NCBI GenBank assembly: GCA_010015805.1
Contig: ML978121.1
Span: forward strand, 2,294,001-2,358,000
Source: Rhizodiscina lignyota
Taxonomy: Eukaryota
DNA: 64,000 bases
Reading direction: 5' to 3'
A program made the position numbers and the translations under genes. This document shows, piece by piece, positions 35,762-45,204 of this stretch. Within the stretch, counting starts at the first letter, position 1; each line of letters starts with the position of its first letter. The notes beneath the pieces are model-generated. The model did no database searches and was not told where the DNA came from. It worked only from the letters and a program-made list of their open reading frames with translations.

Positions 35762-36439
35762 ATGGACAAAGACAGTGAATCCAGTACTACATCACGTGGC
35801 CTTACAACAGTTGACGCCACTGAGAGAGATGAAACACCAAACATAAATCAGAATGAAGATGAATCAAAGGAAGATCCTAAGCAAATAGGCGGGAGTGCAG
35901 GATCAAAGCCATCCGAGCCCAAAAGGATCAGTCCTTCACCCTTGCATATCTACGTGGCAGTTGGAAACCGTCTCAGTGTGAAAGACAAGCACTATAGCTA
36001 CTGGATATGGGTGGAAAGACCCGAGGCCGTTGACGAGGGCTGGATAGCCTCTGGGTACGATTTCTGGCCGCCAGAATGGGAGGTTTTCCAAACGTTCCGT
36101 CCGTTCCAGCATCCGCGGCGCGCGCCCCAAAGCTTTATGGGCCTTCTAAGAATCGGCGAAGTTGCCGATGAGCAACCGGATGACTTCTATGAACGACTTG
36201 AGCTAGGCGAGGAGCAGGAGCCGCCGGCGATCGAGAACGAGGATTCCGAAACCTGGATACTACGCGTAGTTGAGGCGCTGCAGAAGGATGGTGTGGCCAG
36301 GACACCGGATTCCTTCATCTCCACGCTTTCGGAACTAGCTCGGTCATGGAAGGATCTGATGGCTAAGGAGGATGATCTTGCCATGGTATGGCCAGACGGA
36401 CGTCTGCCGCGCGTAGACTTGAGACGAGGTTCGCATTGA
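35762..36439 (+). CDS. Hypothetical protein, paralogue 1 of a local 4-member family
   Basis: ORF from ATG 35762 sharing motifs with the genes at 37078, 38376 and 44408. Confidence 0.75.
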   Translation: MDKDSESSTTSRGLTTVDATERDETPNINQNEDESKEDPKQIGGSAGSKPSEPKRISPSPLHIYVAVGNRLSVKDKHYSYWIWVERPEAVDEGWIASGYDFWPPEWEVFQTFRPFQHPRRAPQSFMGLLRIGEVADEQPDDFYERLELGEEQEPPAIENEDSETWILRVVEALQKDGVARTPDSFISTLSELARSWKDLMAKEDDLAMVWPDGRLPRVDLRRGSH

Positions 36440-37077
36440 TCAGGCAAAGCACGATCATTTGTTGGTATTGAATATTGAGGATATCTGGGCAGGCCGCAAT
36501 TCCAAACATGTTTATCTTCTAAGCTCCACGTGCGTGATTCGAAGAGCACTGTGCCTTAACCGTGACTTGCCCTTGGTGAAGGTGGAAACGGTGTAGCAGG
36601 AACGGATATTACCCTCCAATCCAAGGGAGAGCAACATTGAAACTTTGAAGGCCTAGCGTACTATGTTTCAATCAGTATTAAAGATTGAGCAGCTTGACTA
36701 ATGGTACTTTACATTGATTGGAGAGACCAAGTATCTTAGTTCAATGTTTCGAACTTGAAGCACAACTGTTTGTCGCCCACCAAATGTGCTCGTGTTGTGA
36801 GGTGGCACCATGCGTAGTAGTGACGCCACCAGCATCATCGACTATATGGAGACAAGAGTCTGTTCTTCTTTCTCCATAGCTGTTATGACTTGAAGTGTGT
36901 AAAGTGTCGAGTGAGGCGACAGTTGCGTCAAAGATATCACGGCAACACGGGATCACACGACACTGTTTTGAGAGCTTTCCACCTCTTATGTTTCTCTCTC
37001 AATCAGCCTGCTTACAACATCTCCCGAAGGTGCCGCTCTGCTTCATGCTCAGCGGGTTGCTGGCACGCACATTAAAC

Positions 37078-37876
37078 ATGGAGCAGCCAGCAAGCGATGA
37101 CAAAGAATCGAATGACAACATGGCAATGTGAGTGAATCTGACAAGGACCGCTACATATACAAAAGTAATGTAATTACAGTGACCCAGAAGAAACAAAGGT
37201 GATCGACTCTGATGAATTGTCAACAGAAACGTCCGTGCCTCCCGGAGAAACAGAGACTCTCAGTCACTCTTTCATCTTACGTGCCCTTTTTGCTATGAGG
37301 AGAGCGAGAATTAATCAACGAAGCGAGAGAGAAGTGGCTGGCGAGAAGAAAGCGAGCGATGAAAAGAAACAGACTTCTCCTCTGCACGTCTTCGCGGCTA
37401 TTGGTCGGACTGACATACCGAAGGATGAGGAATTTCACTTCTGGATATGGGGAGAGAGACCTGGAGTCCACGACAAAGGTTGGTATCGCACAGTGGTTAT
37501 GGGCACCTTGTCTGGTCTATGGGAGACTGATCCTCGCACTCAACCTGGTGATCCAAGACCTTATCCCAAGGAATTTCTCGGCATCGTCAAGATCGGAGAA
37601 GTCCTTGGTGAGCATCCGGGAAATTTTTTCTCTCGTCTCAACCCTTTGAGGGTCAAGTGTACTGTCGGAGAGGCCTCCCGAACCTGGTGCCATCGAGCAA
37701 TCCATGCGCTTCAAGATGATGGATTCGTTCCTGGTGCCTTGTCTGCTCATACGCTTCTGGATAAACTCACACAAGATGCGCGAGAATGGCAGAAGGATTT
37801 GGATAGTCGTGGTGTTGCCAGTTGGGCTGATGGGGAGCTACCGAGGAGTTGCGATGGCGATGCGGATGAGGCTTGA
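37078..37876 (+). CDS. Hypothetical protein, paralogue 2
   Basis: Exon 37078-37127, intron GTGAGT..TTACAG, then exon 37180-37876 in frame. Motifs SPLHVFAAIG, FHFWIWGE, KIG, WCHRAIHALQDDG and WADGELPR. Confidence 0.75.
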
Positions 37877-38375
37877 CGGGCGGATTGATGAGGCGATCAA
37901 ATTTGTAAGCATGAAGTAACTCGCAAACATACGGCGAGTACTACTAAGGACACTGCTCGTGTCCTCGTCAAGTGACAGAGAGAGCAGAGTCAGTTGAAGG
38001 TCACAATTCAAAGAATTATTTTTGACGTACGAAGATCACGTGTACCGAATTTGGACGTCATGACCTACCCAATTGCCTGCATCGAAGAAAGACCGTCCGA
38101 ATATATACCTCATGTGTCAAGATCACATGCGCTACATATTCCTGCATCGTTAGAGCATAGTGTTTCCTGCTGATAATCGTCCTTGTGTCTGGTGATTCAA
38201 GCGTGACGGACCAGAATGTAACAGAATGTGGCAGAAGAGGACCGATTGTGCCAAGGAGCAAACAACACTAATAAAAAATACAATAAATAGTGGATATGGA
38301 ATTCGTTCTTTGGTCTTATTTCTCTTTCTGGGATAAGATAAACTTGTTACTCAATTAACACCTGAGCCTTGGAAG

Positions 38376-42451: not shown

Positions 42452-43068
42452 TTAGCCACCGAAGCCGTAGAGGGTACGGCCCTGGCGCTTGAGCGCGTAG
42501 ACGACGTCGAGAGAAGTGACGGTCTTGCGCTTGGCGTGCTCGGTGTAGGTGACTGCGTCACGGATAACACCTTCGAGGAAAGACTTGAGAACACCACGAG
42601 TCTCTTCGTAGATCACTGTGAGGCAGCGACGTTAGCATCTTGGTCAAGGTTAGAAGAAGGATAGCGAGGTAGACATACTAGCAGAGATACGCTTGACACC
42701 GCCACGACGAGCGAGACGACGGATAGCAGGCTTGGTGATACCCTGGATGTTGTCACGAAGAATCTTGCGGTGACGCTTAGCACCACCCTTGCCGAGGCCC
42801 TTGCCACCTTTGCCGCCTGTGATAGATAGTTAGCATTGATGTCGCGATAGTATGCGACGACGATATTAATTGAATTAATATACGACGTCGAGGTGGATGC
42901 GCGTTGTTGTTGCAGGCGAGTGGGACGCGTTGTGGTGGCGAATCAGATGCGGCGCTGCAGCTGCAAGGCCTCATCGTGACTTTGCGACCGGCGAACGCGA
43001 CAACATCGAATTTGCAACACCAACAACGCGATAATAAAAAGGGAAAAAGGATACTTACGTCCAGTCAT
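42452..43068 (-). CDS. HHF: Histone H4
   Basis: Three exons giving [49 protein letters not shown]...[14 protein letters not shown]. Intron 1 spans 42817-43058. Confidence 0.98.
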
Positions 43069-44407
43069 GTTGAGTAAATAGAGTGAGGGAAAAGTTTAGA
43101 TAAGTTTGATGATGAAGACACGCCTTTTTGGACGTGTATTGATGGATACGGGTTGATGGTGGACGGAGCGCTTGAAAATGGCGAGATTTGCGATGAAGGA
43201 GAGAAGGAGAAAAGAGGGAGAAATAAGAAGGGGAATATGGCTTTATAGTGCGGTGAGTGATCAGGCAGTCGTGGGCGGCGCTAAACCTACTCTGGCTGCG
43301 GCGAGCGTGTCGCAAGGAACAACAAAACCATCAGGCCGAGTTCTAGCGGGCAAAGCTTTGGTCCTAAGTTGCGCTGGAAAGCAGCGTCTCATAAGCACAT
43401 CAAAGTTCGCGGGCGCCTGCTGCTGAATGCGCGAGTGAGACCGCTGCGCCGTGGTCGAGCCGAGGCCGGCCCGCGCTAAGCAGGAACACCAAACCTTCAC
43501 GCGTCGCTCGTCGCGTCGCTTTGCACCAAGTATTCAGGCTCCCAAGCCATCTGAAAGTCATTCTTCTAAGATGCGCATCCTTGTATTAAGCGAGCGTATT
43601 CTCTTGAAGTCCATGACTTCGGTTACCGCCACACCCCTCTCCGACGCGCAATTTCTCCATGTCGCGTCCACTGTCTGACCAGACTTGGACTGTTGAACGA
43701 GCATCATATTAAACTAACGTTGGATCTCTTTCGAAGCAGCGCGACATAGCGCGCAGACACGAATACATATGCTTGCGAAAATGGCTCTATCTAGTCACAC
43801 CTAGATTAAGCGTTCCATGCGTCGTCACCGAGCCTCACGACCATCCTACGACTACTGATGAATCGCATGTACTGAACTTGAGCGGAGCACACAGCCCACG
43901 GCATTATCCTCGAAGTAGGTCTGGATCTCCTCTGAGCGGTGGAAGGAAGACTAGTAGCTTAGCGGATTTGGTGATATTTATATTACCCCGTCCAGAGCTG
44001 AAGCGTACTGGATCGCCCAGTTATGGAATATTCAATGTGAAAAGAGCTATTTAAGCCTAATATGCTGTTTTCTTGCTCTCTGCCGTCGATGAGGCTATTT
44101 ACCGACGGACCTTGGTGGGTTTGAGTTAAGCGGAATCCGCTCAGTGCAGCTGTGACTTCGCCGTCTGCACTGTCGCTGCAATGGATAGAGACAAGCACGT
44201 CGGCGAACGGAGGTTCGCTTTAATCACTCAAGCTTGGACTGTTGCGTAAGTAGTATTTTCATTCACTCTGGAGTCTCTTTCATTATATTCGAAGCATTTT
44301 TGAAATTGGCACTCCTATTTGCTTGTCGTCCTAGAAGAGCCCCGGTGCTATCCACGTAAGATACATGTGCGTCCGTCTTCTACGCACTTTTGTATGCCTG
44401 CTTCACC

Positions 44408-45204
44408 TCACTGGCAGAACGTGTAGTCCCTCGGTATCTCCGCTTCAGCCGCCCTCCAGCCCTCGGTCCTTGGAAGTCGATCGTACTTCTCGTACCACGT
44501 CTCCGCCACGTCTACCATGTGAGCCATGAAGGCGTCAGTGTCGAGCTCTGGGTTCACATCGATCTTCTTGTTACGCTTGAGAGCCTCAATTACGCGACGA
44601 ATCCAGTGGACAAAGTCTTCGTTGCCCCGCGGCAGCACCACCGGACGGATCGTATCGTGGAGGTCATTTATGCAGCCATGACCATCAGGCCCCAGATTTC
44701 CAATCTTGGCCATGCCCGTCATGTAGATGGGAAAGCGTTCGAGATCTCCCGGATAGCGCCAATTGTGGATCAGGCGCCATTTTGGAGGCCGGGGTGGATC
44801 TTTCTTTGCCAGCAACACCAACAGCGGCCCGATGTTCGATTCCAGGTCGACCCTCCAGGACCATCCATGATAGTTCGCCAGTGCAAACCCACTGCTCTCC
44901 ACCCAGATCACCCAATTGAACATCGACTGGCTCCCAAACCTCCGAAATTCTGTGCGACGCTCAGGTCGGGAAAATCCACCGCGAGCCAAGGCCGCGATCC
45001 AGATCGCTTTTCCCACGTTCTTAGAATATTCGCTAGCCGTCGAGCCCTTAGGACGCGTCGCATTATCACCTGCAGCTGGAGTCTTGGATGATGATGGTCG
45101 TGGTGGGAACTGAGGGTTGTGACCCAGATACTATTAGAAGTTAATAAAGTTCACATATAGAACATCCTTATGCACACTACCATCCGTGTGCGTTCGTATG
45201 ACAT
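44408..45204 (-). CDS. Hypothetical protein, paralogue 4
   Basis: Putative exon 45204-45181, intron, then exon 45130-44408 in frame. Motifs GSQSMFNWVIWVE, GWSW, GMAKIG and NEDFVHWIRRV. Confidence 0.72.

Follow-up and report, generated by a model that had tools for sequence, protein, structure and literature searches.

Four divergent paralogues in a 64-kb window of Rhizodiscina lignyota

We analysed a window of 64 kb from the genome of the fungus Rhizodiscina lignyota (contig C1:2294001-2358000), in which four genes, here called g1 to g4, encode divergent relatives of the fungal DUF6914/DUF6540 protein group. R. lignyota belongs to the Aulographales in the Dothideomycetes, for which PMC7082219 serves as genome background only. 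g1, g2 and g3 lie in tandem on the forward strand, and g4 is inverted and displaced (Table 1). A sequence-only reading of this DNA had described four highly diverged paralogues of an unrecognised family at these positions; all four open reading frames (ORFs) were located there with their frames open, and every motif listed for them was found in its gene. An in-frame ATG at 35651 would extend g1 to 262 amino acids (aa), and the public model of g4 (P0006) places the donor 3 nucleotides (nt) later, giving 249 aa.

Table 1. Coordinates of the four paralogues, their triad columns and other features, numbered from the first letter of the window. Triad columns are given in the order His, second residue, nucleophile.
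Feature	Position	Strand	Description
g1	35762-36439	+	225 aa; acidic N-tail and DUF6914/DUF6540-like domain
g1 triad columns	Ser 35996-35998, Ser 36050-36052 (weakly aligned), Ser 36245-36247	+	S/x/S
g2	37078-37127 + 37180-37876	+	248 aa; 52-nt intron inferred from GT-AG and frame
g2 triad columns	His 37436-37438, Thr 37490-37492, Ser 37676-37678	+	H/T/S
g3	38376-39107	+	243 aa; intronless
g3 triad columns	Asp 38616-38618, Tyr 38670-38672, Ser 38925-38927	+	D/Y/S
g4	45204-45181 + 45130-44408	-	248 aa; 50-nt intron inferred, short first exon
g4 triad columns	Asn 44915-44917, Arg 44852-44854, Phe 44612-44614	-	N/R/F
NCBI model NA57DRAFT_70701	intron 36386-37423	+	1038-nt intron; g1 and g2 fused into 358 aa
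Amino acid permease gene	40173-42048	+	Pfam AA_permease_2; between g3 and g4; outside the family
Histone H4 gene	42453-43029	-	between g3 and g4; outside the family; three short coding pieces visible

The proteins are 25-34% identical in pairwise BLASTP comparisons. When each pair was tested against 1000 shuffles, five of the six pairs scored above every shuffle (z 7.9-40), and the g2/g4 pair was weaker, with a z of 3.5 that was reached by 2 of the 1000. Profiles built from three of the genes recovered the omitted g1, g2, g3 and g4 at E values of 3.5e-17, 3.3e-13, 4.7e-18 and 2.4e-13, respectively, from 1654 six-frame segments of the window, among which the best unrelated segment reached E 0.72. 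Each gene is thus found by the profile of the other three at an E value of about 3e-13 or below, which bears out the paralogy that had been proposed, and a fifth copy is absent from the window.

Between the copies there is no similarity at the DNA level at E<0.07. The four genes carry no signature of repeat-induced point mutation (RIP), and G+C content (GC) is even at 48-54%. RIP-damaged or pseudogenised copies are ruled out, as the frames are open and the signature is missing. The proteins begin with low-complexity N-tails of 45-70 aa. A hydropathy check, as distinct from a SignalP prediction, agreed with the earlier view that no signal peptide is present: the four have no hydrophobic N-terminus (best 8-residue Kyte-Doolittle mean over the first 35 aa <=0.84), ruling out a secreted effector, and no transmembrane segment (best 19-mer hydropathy <=0.78).

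Homology to the DUF6914/DUF6540 group

On profile evidence, g1-g4 are homologues of the fungal DUF6914/DUF6540 proteins, and the family is therefore not the unrecognised one that it had been taken for. The profile search for relatives that the sequence-only reading proposed gave DUF6914-type homologues: among 1.84 billion representatives, a profile of the four matched 13 proteins at E<=0.001, comprising three from the locus itself (including the fusion model of g1 and g2), the close relatives P0007, P0008 and P0009, and seven others of ~180 aa. All seven of the latter pass the Pfam cut-off for DUF6914, which for both DUF6914 (PF21858) and DUF6540 (PF20174) is 27 bits. A second search returned 26 matches, 22 of them new, and hhalign aligned the four with 29 homologues over 152 columns with a probability of 98.9% and an E value of 1.8e-17. 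The ESM Atlas also points, independently, to DUF6914/DUF6540/DUF7770 clusters, with feature scores of 0.90-0.94 and template modelling (TM) scores by row of up to 0.70.

Like the DUF6914 and DUF6540 families, the four are single-domain fungal proteins without a signal peptide, and they keep the order of elements and the core residues of a W-x-x-W-x-E strand, G-x-x-x-I-G, P and a W-x-x-x-x-x-x-L helix. They differ in falling below the family cut-offs, in having lost the triad, in their long N-tails and in being clustered, and they have G-W, [KR]-I-G-[END] and W-x-x-R where the families have G-x, M-I-G-K and W-T-x-A. DUF6540 is described as a permuted papain-like family of cluster II that retains a CHH triad and whose function is unknown (PMC10318531, section 6 and supplement 3). 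Our literature search, which covered papers outside subscription, found nothing further on DUF6540, DUF6914, DUF7770, PF20174 or PF21858, and nothing on dead fungal members of the group.

Predicted fold

AlphaFold2 gave a confident model of the g2 domain (37355-37873; 35-sequence alignment), with a predicted local distance difference test (pLDDT) of 84.9 and a predicted TM score (pTM) of 0.83; this is the one structure that we modelled ourselves, and Atlas models were used for g3 and the fused g1/g2 protein. In the g2 model, His28 lies on the strand 27-34, which precedes the core helix 108-121, and the helix itself opens with Ser108; this is the permuted order. VIA-align against 48,161 chains ranked TseH (6v98) first, with Z 6.8, a root-mean-square deviation (rmsd) of 4.2 and 137 aligned, followed by CLN5 (6r99; Z 5.8), Aichivirus 2A (7zv1; 5.6) and DeSI-1 (2wp7; 5.6); we take TseH and Aichivirus 2A to be of the NlpC/P60 type. 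PPPDE1 (3ebq) reached Z 6.2 in a second look, while YiiX (2if6), the Bacillus cereus protein 3kw0 and PLAAT4 (7zot) lay at Z 3.3-3.9; no unrelated row exceeded 4.1.

DeSI-1, PPPDE1, CLN5, PLAAT4, YiiX and 3kw0 are permuted NlpC/P60 chains. C97, C92 and LRAT are described as permuted NlpC/P60-type families (PMC10318531), and CLN5 is assigned to the NlpC/P60 type in PMC9012467. In permuted papain-like proteins the core helix begins with the nucleophile (PMC10318531), the place that Ser108 takes in the g2 model. The enzymes among these structures differ from the four in using a Cys nucleophile that all four lack, and the matched chains are 6-11% identical in sequence with Z<8. A sequence search of the PDB with the homologue profile gave 0 matches at E<=10.

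Profile homology, the g2 model and the NlpC/P60-type structure matches together support the permuted papain-like fold, as predicted, that the sequence-only reading had suggested. The structural comparison it proposed came out in part: the g2 model was confident and the best VIA-align rows were of the NlpC/P60 type, but the Foldseek search was not significant.

Loss of the catalytic cysteine

At the triad columns, the Cys position is occupied by Ser in g1, g2 and g3 and by Phe in g4, and the His is kept in g2 alone, as had been noted from the sequence. g1 and g3 are free of Cys throughout. In the close relatives P0007, P0008 and P0009 the nucleophile position is F, N and Q. Judged from the alignment, loss of the Cys is not peculiar to the R. 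lignyota cluster: it is also missing from 23 of the 31 homologues outside the window-type group, namely P0011 and 22 proteins that form one group. Since profiles of dead proteins were used to collect this biased sample, it shows that Cys-less members exist and are conserved, not how frequent they are. The other eight have His, then Gln, His or Asp, then Cys. P0011 has H/Q/S and is nested among active-looking homologues. These counts exclude the fragment P0038 and seven of ten metagenome loci, which are near-duplicates or have broken frames.

The group of 22 (P0010, P0017-P0030, P0032-P0037 and L025) has a tree support of 81/89 and includes proteins of eight named Dothideomycetes, for example Lophiotrema, Zopfia, Lepidopterella and Sporormia. 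Its members are 40-90% identical (median 56%), keep the triad His in 14 and the Asp in 17 of 22 cases, have Ala, Val, Gly, Thr, Ser or Asn in the nucleophile column, and end in a near-invariant NYTWSRTFP-type motif. As this clade is conserved without the Cys, Cys-less members of the DUF6914 family are evidently kept. Loci L021-L025, the last of them already counted above, also belong to it.

With the four, this clade shares the lack of a catalytic Cys and a Pro before the G-x-x-x-I-G strand that is common to six of the seven window-type proteins. It differs in evolving slowly, in mostly keeping His and Asp, and in its C-terminal motif; it is 20-24% identical to the four and is not joined to them in the tree. 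With P0025 as the query, no orthologue from the slow clade was found in the R. lignyota genome. The slow clade, rather than the four window genes, may be the better one to study.

Age of the cluster

In a tree of 41 rows, g4 is sister to P0007 (99/98) and g1 is sister to g2 (100/96). The links between g3 and P0008 (87/31) and between g1/g2 and P0009 (81/80) are weaker, and little support (77/72) is given to the branch that unites g3 and g4 with the foreign proteins beside them. Monophyly of the outgroup was not recovered, several branches are long, and five DUF6914-type domains from contig C9 were left out for poor alignment at the triad. Of the two sub-pairs that had been proposed, g1/g2 is therefore upheld, while g3/g4 is less exclusive, as g4 is nearest to a foreign protein.

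P0007-P0009, which come from Logan contigs, are not encoded in the R. lignyota genome, where the window genes match them best, at 48%, 26% and 34% identity. g4 and P0007 are 45-48% identical, with the higher value extending over 129 residues that include the C-terminal tail. An approximately unbiased (AU) test speaks against a single clade of the four (p 0.007). Because g4 pairs with a foreign protein as its sister and the one-clade hypothesis is rejected, the cluster is old, and the duplication that gave rise to g4, at least, predates the split from the fungus of P0007. A recent tandem duplication is ruled out by the lack of DNA similarity together with the AU result. End branches of the four measure 0.67-1.66 against a median of 0.37, and the median identity within the window-type group is 26% against 56% in the other Cys-less clade; these long branches are consistent with the description of the four as fast-evolving.

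Other family members and neighbouring genes

Family counts in the R. lignyota genome are lower bounds. A fifth Cys-less relative lies ~210 kb from g1, at C1:2117209-2117733 (+; L020:1414-1938); it encodes 174 aa, has S/K/V at the triad columns and has no Pfam match. Two DUF6540 genes on contigs C5 and C2 (L008:1465-1974 (-) and L009:1477-2001 (-)) have complete triads, H/H/C and H/Q/C, which makes them candidate active enzymes. With these complete-triad genes as well as the Cys-less copies, the genome has both active-looking and dead forms. A search of the genome for DUF7770 gave no match, and neither did its controls. Contig C9 holds three degenerate DUF6914 ORFs (L010:1462-2301 (-), L011:688-2055 (+) and L012:1453-2535 (+)). 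L010 has L011 as its divergent neighbour; of the two domains in L011, one passes the cut-off and the other is weak (E 0.043), and L012 has one DUF6914 domain followed by a similar-looking second half without a Pfam match.

The ORFs of ten metagenome loci with family members gave no match at E<=1e-4 to any neighbour in the window or in the 20 kb around the copy at C1:2117209, a result of little weight, as most of these loci are short. Among the triad-bearing metagenome members, L026:2457-2984 has a late stop and L029:6308-6760 and L030:1181-1577 have broken frames, which could be decay or assembly error.

Two genes that do not belong to the family, an amino acid permease gene and a histone H4 gene, separate g3 from g4 (Table 1); the latter was named from its translation. 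An H3 ORF was not noticed beside it, and no search was made for one. Upstream of g1, an intronless ORF of 1271 aa (29243-33058, +) is low-complexity, Ser/Arg/Pro-rich and without a Pfam match.

Proposed function

The four are, we think probably, old DUF6914/DUF6540-related paralogues with a predicted permuted papain-like (NlpC/P60) fold that have no catalytic Cys and would act as intracellular, non-catalytic binders. As the catalytic Cys is lost in all four, they likely bind rather than cut. Within the cell, the scaffold would be kept and the former active-site groove would bind without catalysing a reaction. Proteins and lipids are cut at isopeptide or acyl bonds by active relatives with the permuted papain-like fold (PMC10318531, section 9), so that a lipid or a conjugated protein would be the natural candidate ligand. 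The groove may thus hold the type of substrate that active relatives cut, such as an acyl-linked lipid or an isopeptide- or thioester-linked protein conjugate, or else a protein partner, and the four copies may have diverged towards different partners.

The four would shield, sequester or compete for the ligand of the groove, as has been proposed, among LRAT/PLAAT proteins, for FAM84B (LRATD2), a human LRAT-domain protein without the catalytic Cys that is described as non-enzymatic and possibly opposing its active relatives (PMC7140883). FAM84B likewise has a permuted NlpC/P60-type domain from which the Cys was lost; it belongs to another family and keeps both His residues, and its likeness to the four is an analogy.

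Several points weigh against this reading. No Pfam cut-off is reached: none of g1-g4 has a DUF6914 match, and the best match of the four, g1 to DUF6540, stands at 14.1 bits (E 0.061), so the four are filed as divergent relatives and not as formal members. The reverse search (E 3e-11 to 4e-3) cannot count as independent evidence, as the homologue set was gathered with profiles built from the four. Foldseek with the g2 model gave no match at E<=0.001. All VIA-align Z scores are below 8, with rmsd values of 3-8 Å, which alone may mean just a common arrangement, and the fold call therefore rests on the agreement of the structure matches with the sequence evidence. Long branches leave the tree unsure outside the g4/P0007 and g1/g2 pairs, and at about 45% identity the Phe that g4 shares with P0007 carries little weight. 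Finally, the four share mainly core residues (G, W, L, P); a conserved polar surface patch, such as might point to a single binding site, was not identified.

Alternative readings

It is unlikely that the four are fast-evolving conflict or non-self-recognition proteins, such as decoys or immunity proteins, under diversifying selection. The long end branches and low identity of the window-type group would fit such a role, as would the clustering and the further degenerate copies elsewhere in the genome, and dead papain-fold proteins could serve as decoys. However, the neighbours, a nitroreductase gene among them, are ordinary metabolic and housekeeping genes, and NLR/HET domains were found by Pfam in none of the 44 other window ORFs scanned (short exons excluded) and in none of g1-g4. 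The even GC and the lack of a RIP signature also speak against it, and the copies are old and intact, with no recent turnover. The immunity or non-self-recognition role offered by the sequence-only reading thus found no evidence here.

We consider it quite unlikely that g2, alone among the four, is a working serine-nucleophile enzyme with a Ser-His-Thr site of the kind proposed for menin, DUF2272 and related proteins. Its His, Thr and Ser fall exactly at the three triad columns, Ser108 starts the core helix in the model, and another homologue, P0011, has H/Q/S; papain-like families with Ser in place of Cys, and partly active C-to-S mutants, are also listed (PMC10318531, section 6). Compared with the serine-based papain-like proteins menin, DUF2272, DUF2145 and DUF3750, however, Ser together with both other triad residues occurs in g2 but not in g1, g3, g4 or P0007-P0009. 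Its nearest paralogue, g1, has the Ser without the His, while in P0009, which comes next in relatedness, the nucleophile column holds Gln. A kept His is, moreover, common without a nucleophile, given the His and Asp counts of the Cys-less clade. No orthologue of g2 was found among the homologues gathered.

That g1 and g2 form a single two-domain gene, as in the NCBI model NA57DRAFT_70701, appears very unlikely. The fused 358-aa protein is annotated, the intron has a good donor (GTATGG), and one or two of the C9 DUF6914-type ORFs appear to have two domains. The fusion nevertheless needs an intron of 1038 nt, against 50 and 52 nt for the introns inferred in g4 and g2, and this intron deletes the WPDGRLPR end of g1 and the SPLH strand of g2, each conserved between the two; in the g2 structure model, the SPLH strand is the first of the core. 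Because segments conserved between g1 and g2 are dropped, the fusion is probably an annotation artefact, and two genes are the better reading.

That the four are, lastly, remnants of old duplications that drift nearly neutrally and have hardly any function or none is highly improbable: the catalytic residues were lost differently in each copy, and there are just three close relatives outside the R. lignyota genome among the 1.84 billion representatives, but four frames of ~700 nt are open at 25-34% protein identity without DNA similarity and with core residues in order, and g4 and P0007 remain alike into the C-terminal tail, distances over which open frames suggest that selection keeps the four as proteins.

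Implications

Papain-fold pseudoenzymes are already well known (PMC10318531), and the locus is a clustered side branch, divergent and without the Cys, of a known but uncharacterised fungal papain-like group, which makes it more ordinary than first flagged. Still, four "hypothetical" genes are now placed in a family, a likely gene-model error is exposed in NA57DRAFT_70701, and a large fungal family described as triad-retaining has repeatedly given intact Cys-less forms.

A bolder proposal, which we hold to be doubtful, extends the binder reading: at least two independent dead DUF6914 lineages in the Dothideomycetes, one slow and conserved throughout the class and the other fast and clustered, would regulate, or act as decoys in, an undescribed lipid- or conjugate-cutting pathway of active DUF6914/DUF6540 enzymes, with g2 perhaps switched to serine. 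If these proteins are regulators or decoys, they would offer a handle on the targets of the unstudied active DUF6914/DUF6540 enzymes.

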